From a virus (Duplodnaviria > Heunggongvirae > Uroviricota > Caudoviricetes), in the IMG/VR virus record IMGVR_UViG_3300025944_000008: DNA of 64,000 nt. One strand, 5' to 3'. A program made the position numbers and the translations under genes. Each line of letters starts with the position of its first letter. Position 1 is the first letter of the stretch. Shown piece after piece: positions 45,905-63,866 of this stretch. The notes under the pieces were generated by a model, which searched no databases, was not told where the DNA came from, and was given only the letters and a program-made list of their open reading frames with translations.

Positions 45905-48100
45905 CTACGGCACTTCTTTGTTGGTCAGAATACTTGTGGGATTGGCGCCCGCCAAGAGGTTGCCATCCGGGAGGTATTCCTCGACCGTGCTCGTCGGCAG
46001 GTCTGTCGTCACCACAGTCTCCATGGACTTCATGAAGCGGGTGCTCTTTGAGGCGTCCTCAGATGTGAGGCCGAAGAAGTCAGAGAAGAGGCACTGGGTT
46101 AGCAGGTCCTGAGCCCGGTCGAGACCTCGCTCCTCGAGCGTCTTCAGGATGCTTTGCGCCGTCGCATCTGCTGGCTCTTGGGCCTCCGAGATGACGATCG
46201 AGGAGAGCTGCGTGAACAGGTTGCTGAGGCGGGTCTTGATGACCTGGAACGCTCTCAGCGCGTCGTTGACCTGCGCCAGGCTCGGCGTCGTGAGCAGTGG
46301 GGAAAGAAGACCCTGAAGAGGGAGCAAGTCGTTGTTGAACTGGCCATTGAACGAGCTCATGACCGTCGTGGATGTCTGCGCCGCGGCAACCACAGGAGCC
46401 ACGACTCGAACCGCACTCTTTGTCAGAGGCAGCAGAAGACTCGGGTTGAAAAGGATACGAGTACCATCGATCGCCACCACCGTCTGAATGAAGGCACTTG
46501 CGTGGACGATGCTTCCAACAAGAACTCCCAATGCCGCCGGGTCCTGCACCGCTCCCGTCGCATCGGTGATCTGCATCGCCAGAGGTACGGCGATGGCACT
46601 CGTAAAGCCGAAGTCGGTCAGAACGGGGTTGTTGACGACGAGCTTGGACACATTCGGGATCGTCGACCCACTCGTGATCTCGATTTGGTTGGTGAGCGTC
46701 CTGTCGACTGAGATGTTGAAAGTGGGGGTGTAGTTCGTCTTGATGAAGCGAGTCAGGAAGTCCAGATCGAACGAGTCGATTGGAGTACTGACCTGGTCTG
46801 GAGCGAAGCCCAAGATCTCATGCGCCGACGGCCCGTCCGGCGTGAAGATGTTGGTGGTCGCATCGAAGGTCCCCGGCCCAGCGCCTCGAACACGAACGCT
46901 CGTGTCCGTGTTGCTTCCGAAGATGATGATCGCATGGTCGGAGTGGAAGAAGTCCCCCGCAGTGGGGCCGGTGATTCCAAAGACGGCATTGATGTCGGCG
47001 ATGACAGCCGTCCAGGCCTGGGTGGGTCCCGACGTGATGGGTATGGCGTAGTGCGTTATGCCGTCCGACCCTGGTGACGGGCCAGGCGTAACCTCGACGT
47101 AGAGCTTCAGACCGGCAGGGATGTTGAAGCTCGCCTGCGCCAGGCTGTTGCAGACGAACGGGCACCCCGACTTGCTTGCCCCTGGTATCTCGTAGGACTG
47201 CGCTGAGATGCCGTCAGCGCCCATGGAGGTGCTGTGGGGGTGGGAGGCGACCGTGCTGAGGTCTGGCGAGCCCACAGAGCTCAGGGTGAAGGCACTGGTG
47301 GGCTCCGGGCCGATGAAGAGGCCCTGGGACAGTGGGATCGTGTCGTCGTAGACCTTCTTGGTGTTGGAGATCGACTGCAGCGAGGCGTTGCCTGCCATCA
47401 GCTCGAGTGCGGCGACCGTATTGGACATGCCGCCGCTCGTCATTCCGGCCTGAATCTGCTGCAGAGAGGTTCGAACGCGAGCGATGGTCTGGGTATGCAC
47501 CACTCTCGACAAGTCGATGCCGTTGTAGCTTGCGATCGCGCCAGACAGCGTTGCCAGCCGGCTGATGAAGAGCTGGTGCGTCTGCGTGAAGAGGCCGAGG
47601 GCGTTGAAGAGGTCCTGCTTCGCCTCCGTCCCTGATCTGTTGAAGTCGGTCGACGGGTTCCTCTTCAGCAGCGGAGCAAGCTGGTTGTTGAGGAAATTGT
47701 TGATTGAATTCTGGTAGCGAGTGTAGGCCTGCAGATTCGTGTCGATGCGCCCGATACGATCGAGCTCGACTAGAGCTGTCTGTGCATCGATGAGGTCGGC
47801 AGTGCTCGACGGAAGACCATCTGGGTTCTGGGTCTCGCCGATCGCAGCCGTGATGTAGTCGATGAGCTCGATATCGGACGTAATGAGCTGCTGCAGCGTA
47901 TTCTTGGCGTTCAAGAAGATCGACAGAATAGCCTGCGGATTCAGGAGCAGCGCAATAGCGATCGACTCGAGAACGGCCTGATTCTCAGTCGCCGTGTCTG
48001 CGTCGGAGTTGAGTCTGGTACCAGTGGTCTGTCGAGAGAGGTACTTGCCGACGACCGATGCCGTGTCGATGCTAGTCGCCATCCTCACCCTCTTCATCAC
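45905..48100 (-). CDS. Virion structural protein, 731 aa (helical N-terminal third, beta-rich remainder)
   Basis: Long ORF; late operon. Confidence 0.65.
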   Translation of the reverse strand: MMKRVRMATSIDTASVVGKYLSRQTTGTRLNSDADTATENQAVLESIAIALLLNPQAILSIFLNAKNTLQQLITSDIELIDYITAAIGETQNPDGLPSSTADLIDAQTALVELDRIGRIDTNLQAYTRYQNSINNFLNNQLAPLLKRNPSTDFNRSGTEAKQDLFNALGLFTQTHQLFISRLATLSGAIASYNGIDLSRVVHTQTIARVRTSLQQIQAGMTSGGMSNTVAALELMAGNASLQSISNTKKVYDDTIPLSQGLFIGPEPTSAFTLSSVGSPDLSTVASHPHSTSMGADGISAQSYEIPGASKSGCPFVCNSLAQASFNIPAGLKLYVEVTPGPSPGSDGITHYAIPITSGPTQAWTAVIADINAVFGITGPTAGDFFHSDHAIIIFGSNTDTSVRVRGAGPGTFDATTNIFTPDGPSAHEILGFAPDQVSTPIDSFDLDFLTRFIKTNYTPTFNISVDRTLTNQIEITSGSTIPNVSKLVVNNPVLTDFGFTSAIAVPLAMQITDATGAVQDPAALGVLVGSIVHASAFIQTVVAIDGTRILFNPSLLLPLTKSAVRVVAPVVAAAQTSTTVMSSFNGQFNNDLLPLQGLLSPLLTTPSLAQVNDALRAFQVIKTRLSNLFTQLSSIVISEAQEPADATAQSILKTLEERGLDRAQDLLTQCLFSDFFGLTSEDASKSTRFMKSMETVVTTDLPTSTVEEYLPDGNLLAGANPTSILTNKEVP

Positions 48101-50394: not shown

Positions 50395-50898
50395 CTACGG
50401 CGTCGGAACGCGCTGGAAGATGCTCGTCATCGACGGGATACCGTTCTGGTCGAAGAGGTTGAACGTGTAGAGCGGCGTCGTCCGGTCGTCGTCGTAGATG
50501 ATGAGCTGGTTGGACGCAACGATCCACCTGTTGGTCTGAATCTTCCTCACGATGACAGAGACGGCTTCCGCATTCGTCGCGGCGGTGGCCGCACTGGCTG
50601 CGTTGGTGGCCGCTGCCGCGATCTGGTCGACGTCGAAGCTCTCTGGACGAAGGATGTCCGAATAGTAGCGACTGAGCGAGCTCGCTCCAGCGTCGATCAC
50701 GTAGCAGAGCAGGTGATTCGCGTGGAATGATGGAGTGAAGACGTACAAGCCACCTTTCACCTCAGTGATGGGTGGCTTCGGAAGAATGTCTGAACCAGTC
50801 TCGTCGCAGTACGTCAAGAAGGTCGGCGACTGACCAGTGAGCGGAGATCCGTCGACATTGCTGAACAATGCAAAGCCAACAACGTGGGGGCTGGCCAT
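50395..50898 (-). CDS. Hypothetical beta-rich protein, 167 aa
   Basis: ORF in the late operon. Confidence 0.5.
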   Translation of the reverse strand: MASPHVVGFALFSNVDGSPLTGQSPTFLTYCDETGSDILPKPPITEVKGGLYVFTPSFHANHLLCYVIDAGASSLSRYYSDILRPESFDVDQIAAAATNAASAATAATNAEAVSVIVRKIQTNRWIVASNQLIIYDDDRTTPLYTFNLFDQNGIPSMTSIFQRVPTP

Positions 50899-50938: not shown

Positions 50939-51274
50939 TTACTTCTTGCTTGGCTCAGCCTTCTCGGGCTTCGGCGGCTCGGGCGGGCGAGCGCGCTGAA
51001 TCTCGCCGGAATCCGGGTCCACACCAACCGTGACGGTGAGCTGGTTCGGATCGATCTTGTACTGCTTGCAAATGCGCGCGATCTCCATGTCAAAGACCGC
51101 CGCATCAGCCCTCGCCGTCTCATAGATCCGCTTTCGGTTCGCCCACGCAGCCGTGAGCTTGAGGGCGTCCGTGATCGCCATCTTGGATGGCAAGTTCAAG
51201 GGAGGAGACGGCTTGGGCTCGGCGAGCGCGACGGTCGAGAGCAGCAGAGCTAGGATCGGGATCAGGATCTTCAT
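50939..51274 (-). CDS. Small secreted protein with Sec signal peptide, 111 aa
   Basis: MKILIPILALLLSTVALA|EPK signal peptide. GAGAGG RBS 7 nt before the ATG at 51274. The longer track start at 51313 lacks an RBS. No lipobox Cys. Confidence 0.55.
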   Translation of the reverse strand: MKILIPILALLLSTVALAEPKPSPPLNLPSKMAITDALKLTAAWANRKRIYETARADAAVFDMEIARICKQYKIDPNQLTVTVGVDPDSGEIQRARPPEPPKPEKAEPSKK

Positions 51275-51313
51275 GGTTGGCCTCTCAGTGATTGCCCGTC
51301 CCCTTTGTACCAC

Positions 51314-54300
51314 TTAGTTCAGGACTTCAACAGTGGTGACGGTTCCAGAGACAGTCTGGCTGGCAGCGCTGAGAGTAGCTTGCACGTCGACGGCAAGAGA
51401 TCCTGTCGTATTGATGGTGGTCGTACCGCCGTTGTTGTTCAAATCGGCGAAACCACGAGCGGTAGTCGAGGTCGGGAAGATGACGTTGCCGTCGACCATG
51501 ACCGTGCCGCTCGATCCACAGGTGCGGAAGGTCAGGAATGCATCGACGTCATAGCCCTTCGTGGTGAGCGACGCTCCAACCGTGCTGAGGGCGCCAGTCG
51601 TTGCGATTGTTGTGGCTCCCAGCTTGATGAGCCAGGTGAAGTTGCCTGGCGTCGCCGTAGTGGTGATGACCCCACCGTTGTGAATATGCAGGGTCTTGCC
51701 CGCCGCACAGAAGTTCGCTGGGAGGGTGGCCGTTCCAACGCCGGTGCCGACGATCGTGGCAGTGGTAGCAGTGTTGACCGTACCGTTCGCCGTTGAAGAG
51801 AAGGCGGTTCCCTGCAGCATCTGCTTGAGGCCGAGCTGCTGGGTAGCGAGAGCACTCTGAGTCGAGTCGGTCCAGACATCGCCGTTGGTCGGAGATCCTG
51901 GTGCCGACTGCGAGGCAACGTTGAAGGTGCCATTGACCGTCGAACGAACGCCCGTCTTCGAGATCGAGACGCTGGTAGCGTTCGAGGTGCCAAGCTGCAG
52001 CGCCGCGGCAGAGTCGACCGTAGTGTTACCGCTGCTCGTCGTGATGGTGGACGCTGCATTGCCGGTCAGACTGATGGCGCCAGTCAACTGAGTGAGGCCA
52101 CCAGTGATCGTCGTCGTAATACCAGAGCGGCCGATATTGACCGCGCTCGCGTTGGTGCCACCAATCGTGATGGTGCCGGCGGTGCCACTGTTGACCTTCG
52201 TTCCGCCATCGATCGTGACACTGCCACCGTTGACGTTGCCGCCGAACGCACCAACAGAGCCTGAGTTGCCAGCGGTGATGGTGACGTTACCACCAGGACC
52301 TGGGGGGCCCTGGGCACTGCCGTTTCCACCGTTTCCGCCGATGATTTGAGCGGCACCGCCAGTTCCGCCAGAGATGGAGTTGTTGTTGGTCGCTCCACCT
52401 GCTCCACCCTGCAAAGATGCAGCGCCACCGTTACCAGAAGCAGATCCGTTATTATTTGCTCCGCCAGCACCAGCGATAAGAGCCGCAGCGCCGCCCACAG
52501 CACCACCATCTGACGCACCACCGGCGCCGCCCTTACCCGCCGTGATAGTGACCGTTCCTGCAGCGCCAGACGTCGTCGCCGTTCCGCTCGAATCGCTACC
52601 GGCACCAGCGGTGATCGTAACCGCACCACCCTGTGCGCCAGATCCAGTGAAGCCGGAGATCATCGTGTTACCAGCACCGGCCAAGAGCTGAATCGAGCCA
52701 CCTGCGCCAGGGGCTGCGCTTGAGCTACCAACGGAACCCGCAGCAGCGTTGAGTTGGATACCGCCGCCAGTCGCAGCGGCACTTGATGCCGGAGTTCCAC
52801 CCGTGAGCACAACGGCACCACCGGCGCCGCCCGTAGCTCCCGTAGTCCACGTGCCTGCATTACCGCCAGTAATATTGACCGCGCCACCGGCGCCAACAGC
52901 TAGGCCAGAACCGCCGCTATTACCACCGACACCGCCATTGATGTTGACCGCACCGCCAACAGTAGCGCTGCTTCCGCTGCTTGTATTTCCTGCACCGGCA
53001 GTTATGAAGACTCGGCCAGCAGCACCAGGCGCAAACGCAAACCCATTTCCGCCGCCGCCAGCAACGACGGAGATATCACCACCGGCTCCACCAGCAACTG
53101 AACTACCTGGGCCTCCAAGCTGAGCTCCGAGGGCCAAAGGCGTGCCAGCGGTGTCGTTCGCAGCCGCCACCGTACCTGCTGTCAACTGCGAGGCAAAGAA
53201 GTTGCGACCACGAGCCGCATTGGAGCCGATGTCCATCGCCAGATCGCCACCTCCGAAGGCGATGGCCTGGCTGGTTCCAGAGATAGTGAGCGTGTTGTTG
53301 ATCGACATCGTGCCGCCAATTGCGACATTGGCGGGACTACCAACCGTCTGCACATCGATGACGGCAGTACCAAAGCCATCCTTCACAATGAGCGTGTCAG
53401 CGACGGTGCCGTTGTTGGCAATGATGACGCCACCACCATTGGCGGAGGACGTCGTGATCGTTTGATTTCCCGTCGTTGATCCGTGCGCATATACCGAAGA
53501 GAGCGTATTAGCGGCTGCGGTATAGGCCGTTGTCTGCGTAGTGCCGTCACTGAAATTCAGTGCGAGGGAGATTCCGGTCGCGCCAATATTGCAGTTGTTG
53601 GTGTTGGTGGTGCAGATATTGATATTGCCGAATGAGCCGGAGACCGTGTTGCCACCGCTGATAGTAACGCCACCACCGTTGCCCTGTCCGGCTCCACCAT
53701 CAGCTCCCGCATCACCACCTGCAATCGTGAGAAGGCCGCCGTTGCCAGACGCCTGCGCCGCCGATCCAGCACCACCCGTACCGCCCGTGAGGCTGGTCGG
53801 CCCACCGTCGCCCGCGAAGAGGGTGCTGGTAGCAGCCGCACCGGCACCAGCGCGAACGGTCATCGTGCCGCCGCTCTGGCCATTCACCGTCGAAGCGGTG
53901 CCGGCGTTGCCCGCGTTCACCGTGAGGTTCTTGCCCGCGACGTCTGTCGCAGCCGTCCCGATGTTGTACGTAGCGTTGGCCGTTCCCGAGAACTGCAGGA
54001 TCGAGGCGGACAGCGTCAGGTTGGTCGTATTGTTGAAGCGCCAGACGTAAGACGTTGCGCTCGCCGTATTGAAGATCGGCCCCGTTGTAAGAGTAGTACC
54101 GCCGATGGTGATTCCGGCCGTCGAGGTCGTTCCAATGGTGATTGAGCCGTTGACGCCCGTGCCGGATAGAGCACCACCATTGATTGCGACCGAGCCGCCG
54201 TTGCCGCCGCCAGTGCCGCCAGAAGTACCGCCCGAGCCACCATTGATGTTGACGCCACCACCGTTGCCTGGGCCGTTTGTCGAAGCCGCGCCCGTGCCGC

Positions 54301-57300
54301 CCTGACCGCCCTGCACAGTCGCCGCACCACCAACACCAGCAGTGCCTCCAGACGTAGTCGTCGCCGTACCACCCTGGCCCGCAAACAGCGTGGCAGTGCC
54401 ACCAGCACCACCAGGCGTCGCACCAGAGCCGTTGCCACCGTTGCCTTGGCCGAAGAGTAGAGCAGTGCCGGCCACGCCAGTGCCTGGAGTGGTGGCGCGG
54501 ACAATGCCGCCTGGGATGATGATGTTCTGGCCAGAGCGGCCGATGCTCACCTGACCACTGTTGGTCCCACCGATGGTGATGGTGCCGGCTGCTGCTGACC
54601 CAGAAGTGGTGCCCGTATCGATGACGACGTTGCCAGCGCTCGCTCCACCATTGCTACCCTGGACGAGACCGCCATTGCCGGACTGCAGTGTGAGGGTTCC
54701 GCCCGTGCCCGAGGCGCCTGGGGCCGTTCCGGTACCACCCTGCCCGCCTGCGCCAGCCTGAATGGTCCACGCTGCACCATTACCGCCGATGCCGCCGTTG
54801 CCAGTGCCGTTACCTGCTCCGGCGTCGCCACCCTTGTTCGCGGTCCATGCCCACGCTGCGCTCGTAGCGCCATTACCACCATTGCCGTTCGTAACGCCAG
54901 AACCGCCGTTGCCACTCTGAGCGCTCGAGATGGTAATTGCACCCGCCGAAGAGCCACTGTTGCCACTGCTTGCGAGACCCGCTCGACCAATGCCGGCGGT
55001 GATGGTAATTGAGGACCCAGTACCTGCACCGGCACCATTATCTGCGCCACCTGCCTGGCCACTGATCTGAATCGCACCAGCAGCGCCGCCAACAGCCGAT
55101 GCGGTACCGTCGGCAGGGATGGCGCCAAGAACTTGTGTTAGACCGCCCGCCGCGCCGGTGTTATTGCTGCCGCTGGGGGCGACACCCGTGCCGCCTCGAA
55201 TTGATGCAGTACCAGCAGTACCACCACCTGCGCCGTTATTCGTTCCACCAGGCCCACCACGAACAGTACCTGCGCCACCGTTGCCACCAAGGGCCGTAGC
55301 CGTGCCAGCGCCGCCAGAAGCACCCTGGATGACACTCTGGCCACCCGCGCCACCAGTCAGCGAGGCAGTGCCCGCGCCGCCGGTTCCGCCGTTCAGGTTA
55401 AGAGTTGCGCCGCTGCCACCACCCGTCGCTGAAGCGGCACCGCCATTACCAGCCTGAACGGTGAAAGTCGTTCCAGCAGTGTCAGCCGCAGCCGTCGCAA
55501 CATTGAGCGTCTTGCTCGTTCCACTTGCCCACTGAAGTGTGAGCATTGTGCCACCGAGAGTGACAGCGCTGACGGTTGCATCGAGAGTATTGCTCGCCCA
55601 CGTCAGATTCGAGTCGGCAAGTGTCGTCGAGCTCGAGGCGACAGGGATACGCCCAGAGGTCAAGCCACCGATCGTACCGCTAACTCCGCTCGATGTAGCC
55701 GCCGTAACCCGGCCCTGCGCATCGAGAGTGACTGAGCTGATGAAGTTGCCGCCACCGCCGATCGTGCCAGCACCAGGGCCGACGTTCGGAAGACCGATGG
55801 TGACCGTGCCTCCGAGAGAGACAGGGCTGCCGCTGACGCTGATCTGCCCCGCCGTTCCCGTGACGGTGATGGAGCTGTTGGCTAGCGCCGCATTCGGAAC
55901 TGTACCCCAAGACGGCGCAACACCAACGCCGCCAGAGAGCAGCACTTGGTTCGTCGCGACATCTGCAAGGTTGCCGATTGTATTCGATCCAGTTGCGTAA
56001 AGGATGTCGCCCGTTGTCGCCGCATTGGGCAAGGCCAGTGTCGACCAGACTGGAGCAGCCGCCGTTCCGCCAGACCGTAGATAGGAGCCAGCAGTGACGT
56101 CGGCGAGGCGAGACATTGCCTGTCCGCCGGACGTCGAGTACATCAGGTCGCCGGTAGTTGTCGGGGTACCAGTGAGGCAGGTTGTGCAGGTAAGAGTAAG
56201 CGTGCCGCCCAAGGAGACGGACCCACCGCCTCCAAGAGGGCCGGTCGTGCTGATCGTGACCGAGCTATTCGTCAGTGCTGCGTTCGGAACGGTTCCCCAA
56301 GCAGGTAGTGTTCCTGTGCCCTGCGACAGAAGAACCTGATTCACCGCGACAGCAGTGATGCGGCCGACTGCGTTCGTGGCTGTGGCAGCCAACAGATCGC
56401 CCGTCGTTGCGGCGTTCGGAAGAGTCAGCGTCGACCAGAGCGGTGCGGCAGACGAGCCTCCCGAGCGGAGGTACGAGCCAGCAGCAACGTCTGCGAGCGC
56501 GGTCATGGCCTGACCGCCGCTCGTCGAGTAGAGGATATCGCCGATCGCTGACGGTGTACCAACGATGCAAGTCGCGCAGGCGAGAGTGACAGTACCGCCC
56601 AGCGACACTGTGGTACCGCCAGTGATTGGCGAAGTTGTAGAGATGGTGATGGAGCTGTTCGTCAGAGCCGCATTCGGGACAGTTCCCCACGCAGGAAGAG
56701 TCCCGACGCCCTGTGACAGAAGGACTTGGTTCACCGCAACAGCGGTGATTCGACCCATCGTATTCGAGGCGCTCGCCGCGAATAGGTCACCCGTAGTCGC
56801 TGCGTTCGGGAGAATGAGTGTAGACCAAAGAGGCGCAGCACCAACGCCTCCGCTCCGCAGGTATGATCCGACCGCGACGTCGGCGAGCGGAGAGAGTGAC
56901 TGGCCTCCCGCGGTCGAGTACAGGATGTCGCCAGTTGCCGTCGGTGTTCCAACAAGGCAAGTGCTGCAAGTCAGCGTAAGCGAGCCGCCAAGAGAGACTG
57001 TTCCTCCGCCGCCCACCGGTGCTGTGGTGTTGATGGTGACGGAGCTGTTGGTCAGCGAGCCGTTGCCGATGTTGGTCAGCGTGTTGGAGGCGCCGCTGAT
57101 TGTCTTGTTCGTCAGCGTGTCAGCGGTAGCCCGGCCGACAATGGTATCGGTTGCGTCTGGGAGGGTAAGCGTTCTCGTCGTGCTCGGATTCCAGCTCAGC
57201 GTTCCAAGCCCGGCGAGGTTGTCGAACGAGATCGATTTCGTCGTTCCCGTACCGTCACCAATGACTGGGGCCAGCGTAAACGTATGCGTTCCGGTCCAGG

Positions 57301-58126
57301 TTGGGCTGAATCCCTGATTGACTGAGATCGTGCGGTCGGCGGAGAGGTCTCCGATCGCATTGATGCCTGTTCCGCCTGTCAGCGTGCGGGTGACGTTTGT
57401 GACGGCAGTGACTCGTCCCTGCGCATCGAGTCCGACGCTATCACCCGTTGACCAGGTGTACGTTCCGGCACCCGGGCCAACGCTGGGGAGCACGCCAGAT
57501 GGAAGAGACGTGCTCCACGTCGGCGCCGTTCCAACTCCGCCAGAGACGAGAACTGATCCAGTCGCGACATCCGCCAAGCTGCCAATCGAGTTCGTACCAG
57601 TGGCGATGAGAATATCGCCGGTAGTAGCCGCATTCGGAAGTTTGAGCGTCGACCACAGCGGCAGAGCTCCAACACCTCCGCTTCGCAGATAGGAGCCGGC
57701 CGCAACATCTGCCAGCGGGGCCATGGCCTGGCCACCACTGATCGAGTACATGAGGTCGCCGCCGGCGGTAGGAGTGCCGGTGAGGCAGGTAGCGCAGGTC
57801 AGAAGAACAGAGCCACCAAGAGGAACGGTCGGGCTGCCACCACCGAGTGGAGACGATCCCTGGATGCTGATCGTCGAGTTGGCGAGAAGCGCATTGCCGA
57901 TCGAGCCGTTCGGAATAGTGACGTCGGTTCTGTTCGACCCGGAATTATCCGTCGCCTGGAGCGCACCGCTGAAATTGGCGATGCGCCTCTGAGGCAGAGC
58001 CGTTCCACCATTTTGAATCGTGGTGTATGACGGCGTCGGCGAAGGGGATTGTGCAAGTGCTGCAGATGCTGTGAAGAGCGCAAGCGCCCACACAGCAGCT
58101 CGGCATAGCCTCGTCGGTACCGACAC
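51314..58126 (-). CDS. Giant Gly/Thr/Ala/Ser-rich repeat protein with N-terminal signal peptide, 2270 aa (fibre/adhesin-like), GTG start
   Basis: GTG at 58126 with GGAGGA 9 nt upstream. N-terminus MSVPTRLCRAAVWALALFTASAALAQ|SP is signal-peptide-like. About 134-aa tandem repeats carry a CxTC pair (LGG…LTC(A/S/T)TC…GTPT…GD(I/L)(L/M)YS…LADVA.GSYLRSGG…LPNAATTGD), then long GGxGGxG tracts and a distinct C-terminal domain. Confidence 0.75.
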   Translation of the reverse strand: MSVPTRLCRAAVWALALFTASAALAQSPSPTPSYTTIQNGGTALPQRRIANFSGALQATDNSGSNRTDVTIPNGSIGNALLANSTISIQGSSPLGGGSPTVPLGGSVLLTCATCLTGTPTAGGDLMYSISGGQAMAPLADVAAGSYLRSGGVGALPLWSTLKLPNAATTGDILIATGTNSIGSLADVATGSVLVSGGVGTAPTWSTSLPSGVLPSVGPGAGTYTWSTGDSVGLDAQGRVTAVTNVTRTLTGGTGINAIGDLSADRTISVNQGFSPTWTGTHTFTLAPVIGDGTGTTKSISFDNLAGLGTLSWNPSTTRTLTLPDATDTIVGRATADTLTNKTISGASNTLTNIGNGSLTNSSVTINTTAPVGGGGTVSLGGSLTLTCSTCLVGTPTATGDILYSTAGGQSLSPLADVAVGSYLRSGGVGAAPLWSTLILPNAATTGDLFAASASNTMGRITAVAVNQVLLSQGVGTLPAWGTVPNAALTNSSITISTTSPITGGTTVSLGGTVTLACATCIVGTPSAIGDILYSTSGGQAMTALADVAAGSYLRSGGSSAAPLWSTLTLPNAATTGDLLAATATNAVGRITAVAVNQVLLSQGTGTLPAWGTVPNAALTNSSVTISTTGPLGGGGSVSLGGTLTLTCTTCLTGTPTTTGDLMYSTSGGQAMSRLADVTAGSYLRSGGTAAAPVWSTLALPNAATTGDILYATGSNTIGNLADVATNQVLLSGGVGVAPSWGTVPNAALANSSITVTGTAGQISVSGSPVSLGGTVTIGLPNVGPGAGTIGGGGNFISSVTLDAQGRVTAATSSGVSGTIGGLTSGRIPVASSSTTLADSNLTWASNTLDATVSAVTLGGTMLTLQWASGTSKTLNVATAAADTAGTTFTVQAGNGGAASATGGGSGATLNLNGGTGGAGTASLTGGAGGQSVIQGASGGAGTATALGGNGGAGTVRGGPGGTNNGAGGGTAGTASIRGGTGVAPSGSNNTGAAGGLTQVLGAIPADGTASAVGGAAGAIQISGQAGGADNGAGAGTGSSITITAGIGRAGLASSGNSGSSAGAITISSAQSGNGGSGVTNGNGGNGATSAAWAWTANKGGDAGAGNGTGNGGIGGNGAAWTIQAGAGGQGGTGTAPGASGTGGTLTLQSGNGGLVQGSNGGASAGNVVIDTGTTSGSAAAGTITIGGTNSGQVSIGRSGQNIIIPGGIVRATTPGTGVAGTALLFGQGNGGNGSGATPGGAGGTATLFAGQGGTATTTSGGTAGVGGAATVQGGQGGTGAASTNGPGNGGGVNINGGSGGTSGGTGGGNGGSVAINGGALSGTGVNGSITIGTTSTAGITIGGTTLTTGPIFNTASATSYVWRFNNTTNLTLSASILQFSGTANATYNIGTAATDVAGKNLTVNAGNAGTASTVNGQSGGTMTVRAGAGAAATSTLFAGDGGPTSLTGGTGGAGSAAQASGNGGLLTIAGGDAGADGGAGQGNGGGVTISGGNTVSGSFGNINICTTNTNNCNIGATGISLALNFSDGTTQTTAYTAAANTLSSVYAHGSTTGNQTITTSSANGGGVIIANNGTVADTLIVKDGFGTAVIDVQTVGSPANVAIGGTMSINNTLTISGTSQAIAFGGGDLAMDIGSNAARGRNFFASQLTAGTVAAANDTAGTPLALGAQLGGPGSSVAGGAGGDISVVAGGGGNGFAFAPGAAGRVFITAGAGNTSSGSSATVGGAVNINGGVGGNSGGSGLAVGAGGAVNITGGNAGTWTTGATGGAGGAVVLTGGTPASSAAATGGGIQLNAAAGSVGSSSAAPGAGGSIQLLAGAGNTMISGFTGSGAQGGAVTITAGAGSDSSGTATTSGAAGTVTITAGKGGAGGASDGGAVGGAAALIAGAGGANNNGSASGNGGAASLQGGAGGATNNNSISGGTGGAAQIIGGNGGNGSAQGPPGPGGNVTITAGNSGSVGAFGGNVNGGSVTIDGGTKVNSGTAGTITIGGTNASAVNIGRSGITTTITGGLTQLTGAISLTGNAASTITTSSGNTTVDSAAALQLGTSNATSVSISKTGVRSTVNGTFNVASQSAPGSPTNGDVWTDSTQSALATQQLGLKQMLQGTAFSSTANGTVNTATTATIVGTGVGTATLPANFCAAGKTLHIHNGGVITTTATPGNFTWLIKLGATTIATTGALSTVGASLTTKGYDVDAFLTFRTCGSSGTVMVDGNVIFPTSTTARGFADLNNNGGTTTINTTGSLAVDVQATLSAASQTVSGTVTTVEVLN
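55800..57850. repeat. About five tandem copies of a roughly 400-nt repeat inside the giant gene
   Basis: The protein-level 134-aa repeats are mirrored at DNA level. Near-identical peptides recur in same-frame antisense ORFs at about 55870, 56240, 56650, 57030 and 57730. Confidence 0.6.
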
Positions 58127-58181
58127 TTGTGGAGTCCTCCGTCCAGCATTCTCCCCTGATGGGGAAGGACTGGGAAGAGAA

Positions 58182-58409
58182 CTACTCGTTAGAAGGTTCT
58201 AGCGGGGAGCCGAGATAGTCGTTGATCGAGTTGGCCAGAATTTTCGAAGCGCCCTGAGCGTTGGCGTCTTGAAGACCGACGCTGCCTCCTCGCTTCTTGG
58301 AGATGTTGTCGAGGAAGTCGAATTGTGCATTCAACCGGTTCTTCTCTTTCGAGAACCAGTCGTCGGCGGCATCTTTGAGCTCTTGGAGTCTCTGCGCTGC
58401 ACCAGCCAT
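58182..58409 (-). CDS. Small protein translationally coupled to the sigma factor gene, 75 aa; candidate sigma partner / anti-sigma
   Basis: ATG overlaps the sigma-gene stop (TGATG at 58411-58407). Helical, charged sequence. Confidence 0.5.
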   Translation of the reverse strand: MAGAAQRLQELKDAADDWFSKEKNRLNAQFDFLDNISKKRGGSVGLQDANAQGASKILANSINDYLGSPLEPSNE

Positions 58410-59227
58410 CAGACCAGCTCCATTGCCTCTTTCAGCTTGTCGACGAGGCGATTACGGATGCGGGAGACCTTGGAAGGGTGAATGCCGGTCGTCTTGGCGA
58501 TCTGGCCCGGCTGATGGCGAGGCTTGCCATTCATGCCGAAGGTGTACTCGTAGACCGTCCGCTCTTCGGGCGTGAGGTCGTACTGCATCAGCTTGATCGC
58601 CTCGAGCTCCTTGGGCGTCATGAGCTCAGCGGGGTCGCTCTCGAAACCAGACGCTGGAAGATCTCGCCGGCGCTCCTTGATCATCTGAACGACGCGGCGC
58701 TGAGGCCAACCAAGATGGTCGGCCAACGTCTTGGTATCCGGCTCGTGCCCGAGTTGGTTCATCAGATGCTCCTTCGCCGCATCAAATCGACGAATCTGGG
58801 AGATCTGCCCCTCGGGGATCTTGCCGATGTTCTGGTAGGTCTTGATGTAGCGAGACGACTTCTGCAGGTTCGTCTGGACCCAGGTGTTGAGCTGAGTTCC
58901 GCGCTTGGGGTTGAAGGTCTTGATAGCGTTGACGAAGTGCCGATCAATCTCGTGATGGATGGCGGCGGTTGGAATCTCGACCTTGTTGGCGTACTTATTC
59001 GCCTCTCGAACGAGAAGTGGCTTGTAGCTCTCGTACAGAGGGATGAGGTGCTCCGGCTTCTGACCATGGGTGTTCCAATGGTGCCAGAGCTCGAGCTCCT
59101 TCTTCTGCGTCTCCTTCATCTCCTCCCGCGACTTCTTCGGCGCGGCTGTCTTGACGTGCTGATCGAGGAAGAGATCGAGGATCTGCGTGTGGTAGTCCGG
59201 GATGTGCGCCAACTGCCGGTTGAGCAT
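58409..59227 (-). CDS. Sigma-70-family RNA polymerase sigma factor (phage-encoded), about 272 aa
   Basis: Region 2: LIPLYESYKPLLVREANKYANK…AIKTFNPKRGTQLNTWVQTNL. Region 4 HTH: LTPEERTVYEYTFGMNGKPRHQPGQIAKTTGIHPSKVSRIRNRLVDKLK. Start assigned to the ATG at 59227 that overlaps the upstream stop (TGATG). The track's longer Arg/Gly-rich N-terminus is in overlap with the upstream gene. Confidence 0.8.
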   Translation of the reverse strand: MLNRQLAHIPDYHTQILDLFLDQHVKTAAPKKSREEMKETQKKELELWHHWNTHGQKPEHLIPLYESYKPLLVREANKYANKVEIPTAAIHHEIDRHFVNAIKTFNPKRGTQLNTWVQTNLQKSSRYIKTYQNIGKIPEGQISQIRRFDAAKEHLMNQLGHEPDTKTLADHLGWPQRRVVQMIKERRRDLPASGFESDPAELMTPKELEAIKLMQYDLTPEERTVYEYTFGMNGKPRHQPGQIAKTTGIHPSKVSRIRNRLVDKLKEAMELV

Positions 59228-59610
59228 CAGCCACCCGTGCGGATTGCGCCCAGCTCGTTGATGAAGCTGCGCACTGCCGCAGCCTTGTAATGCGTCGGAT
59301 ATGCCTGGAACGTGCTCGACTCGTTCAGGACTGCCATCGCCACCTTGAGCAGGGGCGCTGACGTGTCCTTCTCGAACTTGTCCGACGGGAACCACTTGTT
59401 GGCAAACCGCGTCTCGACCTTCTGAGCCTCTCCCATGTTCTTGAAGAGGGTGCCGAGCGTATTGCGGTTGTCGTTGAGGTTCTTGTCGTGCTCGGAGTTG
59501 GCGACGGCCGCGCTGTCGACGTCGTGGTCGAACGTCGGGCCGATCTTCCCGCCATCGGAGATCGATGCCCGCTTCTCCAGCATCTTGATGTAGTCGTCTC
59601 GACGCAGCAT
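59227..59610 (-). CDS. Hypothetical protein, 127 aa
   Basis: ORF coupled to the sigma gene. Confidence 0.45.
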   Translation of the reverse strand: MLRRDDYIKMLEKRASISDGGKIGPTFDHDVDSAAVANSEHDKNLNDNRNTLGTLFKNMGEAQKVETRFANKWFPSDKFEKDTSAPLLKVAMAVLNESSTFQAYPTHYKAAAVRSFINELGAIRTGG

Positions 59611-60491: not shown

Positions 60492-63400
60492 TCAGCCTAA
60501 GAGCCCGATACCCAAGGATCCCGTACCTCCGCCAAGCTCATCGGAATACTCCTGCACCGCGGCACGCCGATCCGGTCTCGGGTCGAGAGCCTTCGAGATC
60601 GCGAACTTCTTGCCCTTCGTCTTGAGACGAGGGAGTTCTTGGTCGGGGTTGTCGAGAAGACCAACGAGGTTGCTGTAGGGCCCAACCGCCGTCGAGTGGA
60701 AGCCAGGCACGCCCGCGGTCTTGCTCAGGGTGCTGCCGTTCTGCTCATATGTCAGATCGACAGACCCCAAGACGTTCTCAAGCGTCGCCACCGGCCGGTG
60801 GGTGTAGTCCGCAATGAAGCGGTGGACGTCCAGGCCCTGACGCCGCACCTCGCCGTAGAGATAGGCGAGGACGTCAGCCGACTGCTCGATGGACGGGATG
60901 TCAGAGAGCTGATCTGGCGTGGCATTCGAGAGGATCTGCTGAATCTTCTGAATGTCACCGTCCGCCGCCTCGACCTGGCTCACCAGCTCGCGCTGCTTCT
61001 GCCTGTTGGTCCCCGTCGCACCGGTGCCAAACGGCGTCTGGAACACGGCCTGATCGACGATGGACCCAGTTCCAAAAAACTGCTGGTAGATGTTGTCCCC
61101 GATGAAGAGGTTCGAGTAGAGCGGCGAGAACCAGGGCGGCCGCAGCGACTCTTCAACCGGAATGGGGCGCAAAACCTTGTTGCTGGTCTGCTGCTCGTAG
61201 ATGACAGCCTTCTGCCAGACATAGACCGTCTTGGCGTTCTTGTTCGGCTTCAGAGCTGTCTGAACGCTCTGCTTCCGTCCAGTCTTGCCCTGTTCGGCGA
61301 ACTCGAGGTCCTGGATGCTCACTGCCATGACCTGGTCGGAGGCCACCTGGATCTGCGTGATGGTCCCTCCCTTTGGACCCTTCTGACCGACGCGAAGCTT
61401 GCCGGCGGTGGCGGGGGAGAGAATCTTCGTACCGTTCGGCCTCTCCGCCTGAATCGTCTTGGCTCGAAGAGGGATGGACCCGCTCGGTTGGACAAGCGTC
61501 GAAGACGCCACCACGGTTGAGCTCAGGTCGATGGAGGGCGCTTGAAGGATGGGGGCGATGCTGTCGAGGTTTGCCGGACGGAAGACAGCACTCGGCCGGC
61601 TCGTGGCCTCCCACGGGTCCAGAGGCTGCTGGTCGCCGAACGGATTGACGTTCTGCTGTGCCTGCTGGTTGTCTTGCGCGATCTGCTTCGCCTCGTCAGG
61701 CGCATTCTGAGTAGTGATGTCGATGAGAGACTTGAGGTTCTTGTAGTCGCCCTGTGAAATGAGTGAGGCCGCATCGAGGACCGTACTCACCTCGGTCTTC
61801 TGCGTATCCGACTGGTACTGGGCCGCGTAGAGCGACAGGAAGTCATCCTCGGTGATGCGGTGCGACCGGGCGTGCGTCATCGTGACGCTCGTGGTCGCTC
61901 CCTCTTGGCCCACCTGGTGCGTCATCGTTGCAATCATGCCGAGGTAGTGCGTCGGCGCTCTGAAGGCGGAGGCGAGCGTCCCAATGTTGGCGATGATATC
62001 CGTCATGTCCGTCGGCTTGATCTCGCTGTTGTTCGTATCCGCCAGGGCGGCGTCGACCAACTGCGGATCGAGAATGAACGGCTTGGTGATGAGCAGTGCT
62101 GGGAAGCCAGGCACCAAGAACGGATTGAACTTCAGCGAGACCTCGAGTGTCCGCGCCGCGAAGCGGTACTTCAGGTAGTTGAAGTTCGCAGCGCGCTGAG
62201 CGTAGTTGACCGCCTGGCCCACCACGTTCTTCTTGATCTGCGCCTCTCGCTTGTTGGCGATGTAGTTGACCTCAGAGACGAGCTCGAACTTGGGCAGAAT
62301 GCCGGAGAACTTCTCCCACGGCAGAAGAGACCGGATGCCAGACGCGCCCTGCTTCTTGGCGAGCTCTTGGATCTCCTTCATCGATGGAGCGTAGTGGTAG
62401 TTGGCGAGAAGCTTCTCGTCCGACGGGATGAAGGTCATGCCCGTCTGCAGACGAAGACGCGTCACTTCCTGAAGGAAGTTGCGACTATAGCTGAACTGGG
62501 TGTACTGCTCCGGGAAGATGACGTTGCACTTCGGAGGAGCAGCAAAGAAGCAATCTGGCCGGAAGACCTGGGTCTGCAGGCGATCGAGCTCTGGCGGGTT
62601 GTTGACCGTCTTCTGCGTGGTGGTCTTCTTCGCCTGGTCCTTGCCAGCCGCACGTGCATCGTTGAGGGCGTTCTGGATTGAGGTCCAGTTGTCTCCGATG
62701 TGCGCAGGCCCGGAGGCGATCTTGGTTGGCTGGTTCTTCGCCTGAATGAGATTGAGCGCGAACGAGATAGCCTTCTGAAGGTTCTTGGTGACCTTCGGAT
62801 TCATGTTCGGGGTCAGAAGAATACGGTTCAGGGAGGAAATCAGGTTCTGCGCGATCTGAGCCGTACTGGCGATCCAGCCGAGGTTGTGGAGCTGAGCATT
62901 GCCGTCGTCGAATTGCTTCTTCGCCTGCTGAGCGAGGTCGGTGAGCTCTGTGTCGACGGCGGCCGGGAAGTTGAATGAGCTCGAGACGGTTACCTTCTTC
63001 GTCGAGGTCGTCTGCTGCACGCCAGGGACGTAGAGAGGTGACGTAATCGGCACCACCTCGTAGTAGACCCAATTGAAGAGCAGCTTGATCATGTCTCGGA
63101 ACGTGACGAGCTCTCCAAGGCTGGTAATACCTCGCTCGAGCCACGCCATGAACTCCTTCTCATCGAAGAGTCGCTGAGCCGTGTTGTCGTTCTGCTCAGC
63201 GGTGATCTGCTGGAGGAGGTGATTCTTGAGCTCGGCAATGGTGAAGAAGTCGTTGATGCCGTGCGTGTGCCGCGGGACGCCACCCATAGCCTCGAGGAGC
63301 GAGATGATGCCTCCCATGAGGCCCTTCACGTTCTGGAGACCGGGCGTCTGCGGCTTCTGGTTGAGGTACGTATTCATCACCGACGAGTGGCCATCGATGA

Positions 63401-63866
63401 TGTCGTTGAAGATGGCGTTCCCGCCGGCCCAAATTGCGCTCTCTTCCGTGAGGAAGTTACCGCTCGGGCCGTAGGTGATCATCATCTGGTACGCAGTATC
63501 CCAGTACGTCGAGAAATCCGCGCACTGCAGAACCGCGGAGCGGGAGAGGGGCGTCTCTTGCATCGCCAGCCCGATGACTTCACCGCAGAACAAGAGGCTG
63601 TAGTTCGAGAGGGGGATGGAAGCGTCCGTTTGGGTCTCTGGGCCAGCGCCAGGCGGGACCGCATCTGGCAGGTCGTTGGTGTAGTCGTAGAAGAAGACAT
63701 GGACCATCGTCCTCGGCTTGAAGTTCATGATGCTATCGAGAGGGATGATCTGAATCGCGGCTGTCGCCGGCGAGTTCAAGCTCACCTGCACGGTGACCCC
63801 GATGACGGGGACCTCGATGCCCTCAAGAAACAGCCTCAGCTTGAGCTGCTGCCCGACTCCGTGCAT
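60492..63866 (-). CDS. Large virion-type protein, 1124 aa
   Basis: Long ORF; AAGGGG RBS before the ATG at 63866. Followed by a GC hairpin (60461-60481). Confidence 0.7.
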   Translation of the reverse strand: MHGVGQQLKLRLFLEGIEVPVIGVTVQVSLNSPATAAIQIIPLDSIMNFKPRTMVHVFFYDYTNDLPDAVPPGAGPETQTDASIPLSNYSLLFCGEVIGLAMQETPLSRSAVLQCADFSTYWDTAYQMMITYGPSGNFLTEESAIWAGGNAIFNDIIDGHSSVMNTYLNQKPQTPGLQNVKGLMGGIISLLEAMGGVPRHTHGINDFFTIAELKNHLLQQITAEQNDNTAQRLFDEKEFMAWLERGITSLGELVTFRDMIKLLFNWVYYEVVPITSPLYVPGVQQTTSTKKVTVSSSFNFPAAVDTELTDLAQQAKKQFDDGNAQLHNLGWIASTAQIAQNLISSLNRILLTPNMNPKVTKNLQKAISFALNLIQAKNQPTKIASGPAHIGDNWTSIQNALNDARAAGKDQAKKTTTQKTVNNPPELDRLQTQVFRPDCFFAAPPKCNVIFPEQYTQFSYSRNFLQEVTRLRLQTGMTFIPSDEKLLANYHYAPSMKEIQELAKKQGASGIRSLLPWEKFSGILPKFELVSEVNYIANKREAQIKKNVVGQAVNYAQRAANFNYLKYRFAARTLEVSLKFNPFLVPGFPALLITKPFILDPQLVDAALADTNNSEIKPTDMTDIIANIGTLASAFRAPTHYLGMIATMTHQVGQEGATTSVTMTHARSHRITEDDFLSLYAAQYQSDTQKTEVSTVLDAASLISQGDYKNLKSLIDITTQNAPDEAKQIAQDNQQAQQNVNPFGDQQPLDPWEATSRPSAVFRPANLDSIAPILQAPSIDLSSTVVASSTLVQPSGSIPLRAKTIQAERPNGTKILSPATAGKLRVGQKGPKGGTITQIQVASDQVMAVSIQDLEFAEQGKTGRKQSVQTALKPNKNAKTVYVWQKAVIYEQQTSNKVLRPIPVEESLRPPWFSPLYSNLFIGDNIYQQFFGTGSIVDQAVFQTPFGTGATGTNRQKQRELVSQVEAADGDIQKIQQILSNATPDQLSDIPSIEQSADVLAYLYGEVRRQGLDVHRFIADYTHRPVATLENVLGSVDLTYEQNGSTLSKTAGVPGFHSTAVGPYSNLVGLLDNPDQELPRLKTKGKKFAISKALDPRPDRRAAVQEYSDELGGGTGSLGIGLLG

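Follow-up and report, generated by a model that had tools for sequence, protein, structure and literature searches.

Co-occurring predicted signal peptides on a tail-fibre-type phage protein and its small neighbour

Tailed phages are taken to assemble entirely in the cytoplasm, and a signal peptide predicted on one of their structural proteins is usually written off as an artefact. A 64,000-nt stretch of DNA from an uncultivated member of the Caudoviricetes, here called the window, raises the question of whether every tail fibre conforms to this picture. On its minus strand, a gene for a 2270-aa fibre-type protein and the small gene that follows it both begin with what looks like a Sec signal peptide. 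Are the two proteins exported, do they belong together, and where would an exported fibre act? The comparison of related loci set out below suggests that in some tailed phages a fibre matures outside the cytoplasm.

Two adjacent genes with predicted signal peptides

The fibre gene (51314..58126, minus strand; 2270 aa plus stop, from the ORF listing) starts at a GTG that has a Shine-Dalgarno-like GGAGGA 8 nt 5' of it (58135..58140, minus strand; read from the sequence). After an intergenic gap of 39 nt follows the gene of a 111-aa protein, hereafter the partner (50939..51274, minus strand), with its ATG at 51274 and GAGAGG 6 nt upstream. Both reading frames called in the initial annotation hold up, and each has a credible ribosome-binding site; across the window, GGAG, GAGG or AGGA precedes 16 of 34 crudely called gene starts, against a background of 17%.

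Signal-peptide calls came from a heuristic scan rather than a trained predictor, and the features sought were a positive n-region, an uncharged h-region of ~7-15 residues, small residues at -3/-1 and a total length of ~15-35 residues. Fibre and partner both display them. The predicted signal peptide of the fibre covers residues 1-25 (58052..58126, minus strand) and the N-terminus reads MSVPTRLCRAAVWALALFTASAALA↓QSPSP, with two arginines (R6 and R9) in the n-region, an uncharged, hydrophobic h-region of ~12-16 residues (AAVWALALFTAS) and then A-L-A↓Q, 25 aa in total, an A-x-A at -3/-1 placing the predicted cut before Gln26. That of the partner, 18 aa in total (residues 1-18; 51221..51274, minus strand), reads MKILIPILALLLSTVALA↓EPKPS and consists of K2, the h-region ILIPILALLLSTV and A-L-A↓E. 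This canonical Sec/SPase I architecture agrees with the initial annotation, which had described a signal-peptide-like N-terminus on the large protein and a textbook signal peptide on its 111-aa neighbour; for the fibre, an equivalent N-terminus is also found in ten database homologues and three locus-encoded fibres. Neither window protein contains a twin-arginine motif (S/T-R-R-x-F-L-K) or a lipobox (L-[AS]-[GA]-C), and among 52 crudely called genes of the window the scan flagged two, the adjacent fibre and partner.

The n/h/c architecture and the AxA↓Q site are kept across fibre N-termini that are otherwise unalignable, and Gln stands at +1 in 12 of the 13 signal-peptide fibres, the window's included. 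This resembles the Q-rule described for SPase I substrates of Bacteroidetes (PMC5837995, PMC10653852), and one relative, on a contig binned as Bacteroidota (L015), reads ...LIFG↓QATG. In contrast to such a rule, Gln at +1 occurs in just one of 55 partner-family members and the window uses Shine-Dalgarno sites, so that the residue appears to characterise the fibre and not to follow from a rule valid throughout the host.

Searches recovered 66 homologues of the fibre, including tail-fibre-type proteins with Peptidase_S74 or Mtd_N domains, which are carried by distant relatives only. One GenBank match is annotated 'phage-related tail fiber protein', and an independent contig (L001) carries a gene identical to the window fibre. 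The fibre matched no curated family in Pfam, PHROG or NCBIfam, and whole-fibre tblastn against 50,697 phage records returned zero matches, the repeat unit alone three weak ones. Scans of IMG/VR with the fibre N-terminus and with partner alignments gave the same phage and one new locus only, a metagenome scan the same phage only, and a first genome scan nothing.

A mosaic fibre with cysteine-bearing repeats

An anchored alignment of four modules delimits the first CxTC module (residues 66-205; 57512..57931, minus strand), whose CATC lies at residues 111-114 (nt 57785-57796). It is followed by a 136-aa insert module containing the motif ...LTLPDATDTIVGRATADTLTNKTISG (residues 206-341; 57104..57511, minus strand) and by three tandem 130-aa repeats of repeat family D1 at 390-nt spacing (residues 342-731; 55934..57103, minus strand). 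Each tandem repeat carries LTCxTC (CSTC at residue 387, CATC at 517, CTTC at 647) and two copies of a ~40-aa motif, GDxLY...SYLRSGG..P.WSTL.LPNAATTGD; the repeat unit is conserved in P0001, P0003, P0004, P0005 and P0010. The protein had initially been described as carrying about five ~134-aa tandem repeats, each with a CxTC pair. Repeats with CxTC do exist, yet the pairs number four (residues 111, 387, 517 and 647), the period is 130 aa (390 nt), three copies are in tandem with an earlier one split off by the 136-aa insert, and a fifth copy is degenerate and lacks Cys.

The proposal that these repeats form a recombination and phase-variation hotspot did not survive closer inspection. They are 65-73% identical as protein and 63-67% as DNA, the longest exact run common to any two units is 9-15 nt (longest exact internal repeat 18 nt), third-codon-position identity at conserved residues is ~0.40, and Tandem Repeats Finder did not detect the 390-nt DNA repeats. 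Judged by these values the CxTC repeats are old and diverged, which makes such a hotspot implausible.

A Cys-less degenerate repeat, linker modules and a Gly-rich shaft, recognised by Gly content, make up residues 732-2000 (52127..55933, minus strand). Gly accounts for 30-38% per 100 residues at residues 900-1300, 1400-1500 and 1640-2000, as expected from the Gly-rich tracts of hundreds of residues noted at the outset, and the entire 2270-aa fibre contains a single Glu. In the shaft, Gly autocorrelation peaks at 10 and 22 residues, and a V-x-I-x-G-G strand recurs about every 22 residues. A collagen-like shaft was ruled out by the absence of G-X-Y runs of four or more and of a Pfam collagen match; nor are the Gly repeats of the RTX or PE-PGRS type (GGxGxD nonapeptides), and Pfam gave no HemolysinCabind match.

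The distinct C-terminal beta domain that had been anticipated proves to be a fibre-tip jelly roll. The tip (residues 2030-2270; 51317..52039, minus strand) comprises an all-beta jelly-roll knob from about residue 2070, ending ...TVEVLN, of the TNF/C1q-like type common to many phage fibres and also present on short phage proteins without signal peptide. T9SS cargo and autotransporters were rejected as models, as there is no sorting domain (TIGR04183/TIGR04131) and no barrel, with NCBIfam at E<=1 and Pfam at E<=0.01 empty. A long repetitive shaft, a distal trimer-type knob and mosaic module exchange are found together here, as in tail fibres. The exchange spans fibres with and without signal peptide: residues 740-1420 are 60-75% identical to P0002, which lacks one, and the 136-aa insert shares 72-74% identity with P0011 and P0001, both signal-peptide fibres, and 67% with P0009, again without one.

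The partner family and related loci

The mature partner is predicted to form a long and a short helix and a hairpin, with a Pro/Lys tail that ends in KK; its AlphaFold2 model reaches a pLDDT of ~90 over residues 31-90, with a helix at 34-71. Foldseek of this model against the PDB returned nothing below E=3, LysM-like matches being weak and insignificant. An exhaustive HMMER search defines a family of 66 clusters that is not previously described, and the 11 members queried showed no consistent Pfam or PHROG match. Some 60 of 63 representatives have a signal peptide or a lipobox (the latter in P0080, P0093, P0099, P0104 and P0107), and most clusters end in Lys. A 1586-aa match of the partner profile (P0086) was discarded as a spurious coiled-coil/GAF-repeat match, and a 110-aa signal-peptide protein of L016, partner-like in appearance, scored insignificantly against the family HMM and was left out of the counts.

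Ten related loci, among them L001, were compared for the co-variation of signal peptides. Six (L001, L002, L003, L008, L011, L017) have one on both the fibre and the partner-family gene, four (L006, L007, L009, L010) on neither, and none is discordant. Immediately after the fibre gene comes a homologous small gene in L002, L003, L008, L011 and L017, and a small gene without signal peptide takes this place in the four loci in which neither has one, where the region upstream of the fibre start leaves no room for an extension. The partner groups with and without signal peptide occupy the same position and are related (hhalign 87.8%, E 3.3e-6), a profile of 63 partners scoring those without signal peptide at 10-12 bits only. 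With modules exchanged between both kinds of fibre, the concordance of signal peptides has been kept despite exchange, and it may stem from a few evolutionary events. In two further loci, L012 and L016, signal-peptide fibres are followed by other small signal-peptide proteins.

Cysteines follow a similar distribution. CxxC is found in 8/10 fibres with a signal peptide and in 4/6 relatives anchored in the membrane, against 0/52 relatives with neither feature; the two signal-peptide fibres without CxxC have an N-terminal C-x5-C pair instead.

The window fibre lies in a co-directional minus-strand block with a Baseplate_J-like gene (40171-44880), a tail/baseplate-module location as is typical of tail fibres. 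Its relatives stand directly behind Baseplate_J and Mu gp48 genes (L011, L012) or J/I-like genes (L017); the exceptions are L002 and L008, where the pair sits amid replication and lysis genes, not tail genes. L017 has a further fibre-like gene, devoid of a signal peptide, ahead of its signal-peptide fibre, so the latter could be accessory. A sigma-70-family gene is found two genes upstream of the window fibre (58409..59395, minus strand; Pfam Sigma70_r3 E 6.7e-7, PHROG 351 E 8.9e-14), and the fibre genes of L002 and L008 likewise have sigma-factor genes upstream. Downstream of the partner follows a 167-aa gene (50395..50898, minus strand) that is conserved after the pair in the loci without signal peptides, its N-terminus MASPHVVGFALF... 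being recognisably similar to MSSPKNFCFTVYDATTG... and MASPQIVVFPVYDATTG... (L006, L007, L009, L010). The segment MPLxxFPxLxLTGLLTxGRVP of orthologues without signal peptide is missing from the window fibre and from elsewhere in the window, which leaves no evident baseplate-docking element there. A promoter and terminator scan around the pair gave nothing above chance.

Export and possible roles of the pair

Our tentative reading is that the 2270-aa ORF encodes a mosaic tail-fibre-type protein made as a Sec preprotein, that the partner is dedicated to it and exported too, and that the fibre joins tails at lysis. Sec would carry both proteins across the inner membrane and signal peptidase I would cut both after ALA, a step that their sequences and the comparison of loci make quite likely; the fibre would then begin with Gln, prone to pyroglutamate formation. 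In the periplasm the fibre would fold and trimerise, its CxTC pairs could oxidise, and the small helical partner would act as assembly or holding factor, which the cysteine distribution and the gene linkage render reasonably plausible. As the last assembly step, holin and endolysin would breach inner membrane and wall, and finished fibres would encounter and bind tails assembled in the cytoplasm, much as T4 fibres are able to join particles that lack them. Attachment at lysis in the present phage is conceivable and is put forward with reserve. A complete periplasmic branch of virion assembly, with a Sec-exported fibre and helper, disulfides, pyroglutamate, a partner that possibly holds the fibre, and attachment at lysis, is possible but far from assured, and the literature searched offered no precedent for a tailed-phage virion protein, or a Sec-exported fibre, being exported before assembly.

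The joint gain and loss of signal peptides, together with paired cysteines found in exported variants only, makes a concrete case for Sec routing of a fibre-type protein. If the fibre is on virions, this would be a new assembly route, in which disulfide-stabilised fibres are possible and fibre attachment is tied to lysis timing. If it is not, phages would have turned tail fibres into host envelope proteins, in parallel to the MAT (mosaic adhesive trimer) adhesins of Bdellovibrio bacteriovorus. Either way, the partner clusters would form a new small periplasmic protein family, and whoever expresses such receptor-binding proteins in another host, or engineers them, may have to direct them to the periplasm and supply the partner as well.

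That there is no export at all, the hydrophobic N-termini serving as helices that anchor or assemble virion proteins in the cytoplasm or resembling signal peptides by chance, strikes us as very improbable. To our knowledge every tailed-phage assembly described is cytoplasmic, and the calls made here come from a heuristic scan and not a dedicated predictor. Signal peptides on phage structural proteins such as capsid proteins are moreover often deemed false positives (PMC10367356). Such artefacts would hardly account for a canonical n/h/c architecture and AxA↓Q conserved across unalignable N-termini, for a partner whose similar N-terminus is gained and lost with that of the fibre, for family members that swap the signal peptide for a lipobox, or for cysteine pairs strictly limited to signal-peptide and membrane-anchored variants. 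The virion anchor helix named as alternative in the initial annotation is likewise weakened, leaving the parallel gain and loss in the partner and the conserved motif unexplained, while its exported fibre or adhesin with an exported partner is strongly supported by joint presence or absence in 10/10 loci, along with cysteine pairs in exported variants and the fibre-tip jelly roll. A doubtful but possible alternative is that the pair is exported yet non-virion: a fibre-type protein would have been recruited to the envelope or surface of the cell, infected or lysogenic, with the partner as assembly or anchoring factor. It might serve as a MAT-like adhesin, mask receptors or exclude superinfecting phages, or act as a decoy keeping progeny off debris, and the same doubt applies jointly to these variants. 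Location speaks both ways: the pair lies outside the tail module and beside lysis genes in L002 and L008 and adjoins an integrase gene, a moron-like position, in L003, whereas in L011 and L012 the fibre gene stands behind baseplate genes, the canonical place of a fibre, and in the window it replaces an orthologous cytoplasmic fibre, the 160-aa gene downstream being the same. Missing from the window fibre is the docking-like N-terminal segment of the orthologues without signal peptide, but large modules have been exchanged with cytoplasmic fibres at 60-75% identity. Six other structural-size ORFs of the window could supply receptor-binding proteins, and L017 has its additional fibre without signal peptide; a 2270-aa product would, however, be costly for a virulent-type phage, and neither a T9SS domain nor an autotransporter barrel was found as outer-membrane translocation signal (Pfam and NCBIfam empty). 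Relatives from bacteria of the candidate phyla radiation (CPR), P0014 among them, combine the same modules in cell proteins anchored in the membrane. Proteins with Q-rule signal peptides are also encoded by phages of Porphyromonas gingivalis, and modification of the host envelope has been proposed for them (PMC10367356). Exported tail-fibre-like proteins are so far known only as fibres of the cell surface, the Bdellovibrio MATs, Sec-exported trimers indicating that folding outside the cytoplasm is feasible (PMC10769870). MATs are encoded by chromosomal genes of a predatory bacterium and have a conserved ~130-aa domain after the signal peptide (PMC10769870), and no small co-exported partner is described for them; the gene studied here is instead phage-encoded, stands at the position of an orthologous cytoplasmic fibre and varies in its N-terminal modules between lineages.

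We further consider it unlikely that the small protein is no fibre partner but an independent envelope protein, either a receptor blocker similar to Llp or Cor or a spanin-like lysis accessory. In T5, llp adjoins the gene of the receptor-binding protein pb5, and Cor-type lipoprotein genes (phi80, T1, N15) lie near fibre genes; the small exported protein beside a receptor-recognition gene and the few lipobox members of the partner family recall this arrangement. The receptor-binding proteins of these phages stay in the cytoplasm and their blockers are lipoproteins, whereas here the fibre, too, is predicted to be exported. Lineages without signal peptide moreover encode a cytoplasmic counterpart in the place of the partner, which makes a surface-receptor blocker role unlikely. 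Holin-, spanin- or endolysin-like genes directly follow the partner in L002, L008 and L017, and its helical, Pro-rich C-terminal architecture resembles i-spanins. Even so, it follows the fibre in 6/6 signal-peptide loci whatever comes beyond, which is structural genes in the window and the operon end in L003 and L011. A spanin was ruled out by its cleavable-looking N-terminus, the lack of an embedded lipoprotein ORF and these neighbouring structural genes; separate spanin-like genes or candidates exist in L002, L008 and L012, and the sole spanin match of the family is a PHROG Rz-like hit at E 0.09 in 1/11 members.

Returning to an exported fibre that reaches the virion, the closest systems each share part of its features. 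The virion protein pIII of filamentous phages binds the receptor, is made with a Sec signal peptide and contains disulfides, and Ff virions take shape as they are extruded through the envelope; the phage described here differs in its baseplate J-type tail genes and a lifestyle of cytoplasmic replication and packaging. Signal-peptide endolysins such as fOg44 Lys44 and those of the J5a clade of Wbeta-like phages (PMC8878798) are late proteins that carry a Sec signal peptide in some phages and lack it in related ones, and they rely on the Sec pathway of the host. They are enzymes with an envelope substrate, in contrast to a fibre-type protein accompanied by a second gene that switches in step. 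We know of no signal peptide on the fibres and chaperones of lambda (Stf/Tfa), P2 (H/G), Mu (S/U) or T4 (gp37/gp38). Unlike classical tip chaperones, the partner does not co-vary with the fibre tip, and it belongs to no known fibre-chaperone family by sequence or fold (Pfam, PHROGs, Foldseek against the PDB). What it shares with the Tfa/gpG/gpU/gp38 type is its place as a small gene directly downstream of a very long mosaic fibre gene, and the fibre shares with theirs a trimer-type jelly-roll tip, module exchange between phages and, in L011, L012 and L017, a position after Baseplate_J and gp48- or I-type genes.

Predicted signal peptides on the fibre and the adjacent small protein

The fibre ORF (51314..58126, minus strand; 2270 aa) begins at a GTG codon with GGAGGA 8 nt upstream. 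It is followed by the partner ORF (50939-51274, minus strand; 111 aa), whose ATG at 51274 has GAGAGG 6 nt upstream, and both genes are present again on the independent contigs L001, L005 and L014. The initial annotation had seen signal-peptide-like N-termini on the two proteins, and both indeed have a textbook Sec/SPase I layout, MSVPTRLCRAAVWALALFTASAALA/QSPSP in the fibre and MKILIPILALLLSTVALA/EPKPS in the partner (the slash marks the predicted cleavage site); twin-arginine motif and lipobox are absent from both N-termini. A heuristic scan of a crude gene call flagged signal peptides in 2 of the 52 window genes, the fibre and the partner only, the calls in the window and in the partner family resting on heuristic criteria.

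Genomic context was taken for eleven relatives of the fibre. Both proteins have a signal peptide in six loci (the window with L001, and L002, L003, L008, L011 and L017), where the small gene is homologous to the 111-aa protein of the window (34-53% identical). Four loci (L006, L007, L009 and L010) lack it on both, and their small genes encode proteins of 109-166 aa whose N-terminus is polar and rich in Lys. None of these ten scored loci is discordant, their switching events not all being independent. At the loci without signal peptides, divergent upstream genes leave no space for a longer fibre ORF, and the same ~160-aa gene follows the pair as in the window. Their small proteins align to the mature part of the signal-peptide partners (hhalign 87.8%, E 3.3e-6); because a profile of 63 partners scores them at only 10-12 bits, their homology rests on the profile-profile result and synteny. 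Since fibres with and without a signal peptide swap modules with each other, the maintained concordance argues for selection.

In L012 and L016, the genes behind the signal-peptide fibres encode different small proteins that also have signal peptides, with no demonstrable homology to the partner family. In the Mu-like phage L012 (4568-11478), Baseplate_J and gp48 are directly followed by two successive fibre-type genes with signal peptides, of 477 aa (MKKLILFLSLLASTAFA/QIAP) and 1386 aa; downstream lie a non-homologous signal-peptide protein of 114 aa, holin-like proteins, lipoproteins, a trypsin-like protein and Amidase_2.

Position +1 is Gln in 12 of 13 signal-peptide fibres, whose signal peptides are otherwise unalignable. 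This recalls the Q-rule of Bacteroidetes, where exported proteins gain stability from pyroglutamate (PMC5837995, PMC10653852). The sole genome match is a contig binned as Bacteroidota (L015), and its collagen-like fibre begins MKKILLILILFPALIFG/QATG. As only one partner-family member out of 55 has Gln in this position and the window uses Shine-Dalgarno sites, we treat the Gln as a property of the fibre. The fibre-type ORF of L015 (2395-4833; contig JAZKBX010000332.1, GC 35%) gives this N-terminus from an internal start, and combines collagen-like G-X-Y runs with SYLRSAG...LPNSATTGD, the shared module; lysis-type genes lie behind it.

Fibre architecture and shared modules

The fibre is composed largely of Gly (21%), Thr (15%), Ala (14%) and Ser (10%), with one Glu and 14 Lys, and matched no family in Pfam, PHROG or NCBIfam. 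A short Pro/Ser linker joins the signal peptide to four modules with ...LTCxTC(L/I)xGTP..., the first at residues 66-205 and, after a 136-aa insert, three tandem 130-aa copies at residues 342-731, with cysteine pairs at 111/114, 387/390, 517/520 and 647/650; a fifth, Cys-less copy follows. The repeats initially described as about five in tandem, ~134 aa long and each with CxTC are thus real, with the correction that four carry CxTC, that the unit is 130 aa and that three are in tandem. Their DNA is 63-67% identical, with third-position identity of ~0.40 at conserved residues and a longest common exact run of 9-15 nt, and TRF found no array in it. The repeats are old; their low identity, short exact runs and lack of a TRF array therefore do not support the suggested recombination hotspot in ~400-nt repeats.

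Residues 900-2000 contain 30-38% Gly with a periodicity of ~22 residues and a V-x-I-x-G-G strand per turn, which bears out the GGxGGxG tracts over hundreds of residues noted at the outset. The shaft is predicted from its sequence to be beta-solenoid-like, and a collagen-like shaft is ruled out, as this region has no G-X-Y runs. The distinct C-terminal beta domain also proposed then was recovered by AlphaFold2, which modelled the last ~200 residues as a jelly-roll knob (24 sequences; pLDDT 79, pTM 0.72) with 104 viral Foldseek matches, mostly uncultured Caudovirales proteins. Within the fibre gene (52000-56000) GC skew is -0.08, against +0.08 to +0.13 in the flanks, and GC3 is 0.63 versus about 0.8 in neighbouring genes; Gly/Ala-rich coding on the minus strand accounts for these shifts, so foreign origin is not required.

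Searched against 5.8 billion proteins, the fibre has 66 matches. The currency common to these homologues is a ~40-aa GDxLY...SYLRSGG..P.WSTL.LPNAATTGD motif together with TLTLPDATDTLVGRxTTDTLTNKT. They are found as well in Fadolivirus proteins, in proteins of candidate-phyla-radiation (CPR) bacteria that have a membrane anchor, and in proteins with the tail-fibre domains Peptidase_S74 or Mtd_N; one fibre module pool thus spans phages, giant viruses and cell-surface proteins. Six homologues (P0013, P0051, P0012, P0014, P0026 and P0059) that come from a giant virus (Fadolivirus), a 346-kb contig and membrane-anchored CPR (Dojkabacteria) proteins carry the second of these motifs and SYLRSGG..P.WSTLTLPNAATTGD. 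The window fibre itself is a mosaic. Its residues 205-350 share 72-74% identity with the homologues P0011 and P0001 and 67% with P0009, its residues 740-1420 share 60-75% with P0002, and its tip recurs only in the short proteins P0135-P0157. Signal-peptide-like N-termini are found in 10 of the 66 homologues (P0001, P0003, P0004, P0005, P0010, P0011, P0016, P0023, P0032 and one long-anchor case) and are concentrated among the closest relatives; P0002, P0006, P0008 and P0009 have none. In L006 (5617-13811), a relative without signal peptide, the fibre is split into 794-aa and 1936-aa genes overlapping at stop/start, and the 794-aa N-terminal part bears MPLxxFPxLxLTGLLTxGRVP, absent from the window fibre.

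Among the signal-peptide fibres 8 of 10 have CxxC; so do 4 of 6 relatives that carry a membrane anchor at the N-terminus, and 0 of 52 relatives that have neither. The two CxxC-free signal-peptide fibres have a C-x5-C pair right behind the signal peptide, and the corresponding module of cytoplasmic fibres has the sequence ...LSLPNVGPGAG.... Such confinement of paired cysteines to extracytoplasmic variants is as expected if they are oxidised in the periplasm, which we infer for the fibre; metal binding on the three-fold axis is an alternative.

The partner, and the probable export and possible fate of the fibre

HMMER, run exhaustively against 1.84 billion representatives, found 66 clusters of the partner family. 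Among 63 representatives, 55 pass the signal-peptide heuristic, 5 have strongly hydrophobic N-termini or lipoboxes and 3 are fragments. Their conserved core is ...PPSKMxxxDAAxLDAAxAH...ICxxYKIDxxxLGKTVGVDxxTGEIxRA. AlphaFold2 modelled the partner as one long helix (residues 34-71) followed by a shorter one and a hairpin, with no significant PDB neighbour, and no family in Pfam or PHROG matched consistently. A spanin was rejected, as no lipoprotein ORF is embedded in the gene, which stands behind the fibre irrespective of what lies further on, and as L002, L008 and L012 have separate spanin-like genes. The partner does not co-vary with the tip, since fibres that differ in their C-termini (three kinds) have partners 52-53% identical, and it is therefore not a classical tip chaperone. 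After a Pro-rich tail, 55 of the 63 representatives end in Lys, 29 of them in Lys-Lys. The Lys ends of the family (P0067-P0134, 50939-51274) recall Braun lipoprotein, whose C-terminal Lys is cross-linked to peptidoglycan; by analogy, the partner might anchor some component to the cell wall until the endolysin acts.

Sec export of both fibre and partner is very probable. Once through Sec, we reasonably infer, the fibre would fold in the periplasm with the partner acting in the same compartment. It may then join tails once lysis merges the compartments. Attachment at lysis is narrowly favoured because the fibre gene occupies the slot of an orthologous cytoplasmic fibre, because L011 and L012 show the canonical fibre slot after baseplate genes, and because modules are exchanged with cytoplasmic fibres. 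In T4, finished fibres join fibreless particles as a separate final step, which lends partial support in that separate compartments are not absurd. Four points speak against attachment and for a non-virion, envelope or surface role: there is no known precedent for an exported fibre joining tails, the N-terminal segment of the signal-peptide-free orthologues is missing from the window fibre, the pair stands beside lysis and replication genes in L002 and L008, and L017 also has a fibre-like gene without signal peptide. Pfam and NCBIfam gave no outer-membrane crossing signal in the fibre. With more doubt than confidence, we suggest that the pair could point to a new assembly route.

Pairs of tail fibre and assembly genes have the same arrangement, Sec export of both being the feature here. 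The nearest exported look-alikes, the chromosomal MAT fibres of Bdellovibrio, all carry signal peptides (PMC10769870), and the nearest evolutionary analogy is provided by the endolysin clades with and without signal peptides (PMC8878798). In the full-text literature searched, no description was found of tailed phages whose tail fibre is exported by Sec, an absence that is not proof.

Other features of the window

The window, a fragment of a GC-rich phage genome (about 60%), encodes helicases, UDG, DnaB, primase, PolA and RusA, with no tRNA genes in its 64 kb. Its RecA-like protein (20938-22323, plus strand; 461 aa) has a long N-terminal extension, the RecA domain starting only at ~residue 223. 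The Baseplate_J-like protein (40171-44880, minus strand) is unusually large at 1569 aa, and five more large ORFs of 730-1355 aa lie in the same strand block (29050-32736, 33448-37515, 37517-39823, 45905-48100 and 60492-63866), with no Pfam or PHROG family matched and no modules in common with the fibre. Two genes upstream of the fibre, a sigma-70-family gene (58409-59395, minus strand; Sigma70_r3, PHROG 351) may encode a late-gene sigma factor; L002 and L008 have sigma-factor genes upstream of the fibre too. The ribonucleotide reductase encoded at 120-2855 (minus strand) belongs to class II (B12-type) and has a TSCPD domain. In the related phage L002 (25610-26039) the ribonucleotide reductase has an intein and an HNH domain, and a 921-aa protein near the sigma factor contains a LAGLIDADG/Hom_end element.
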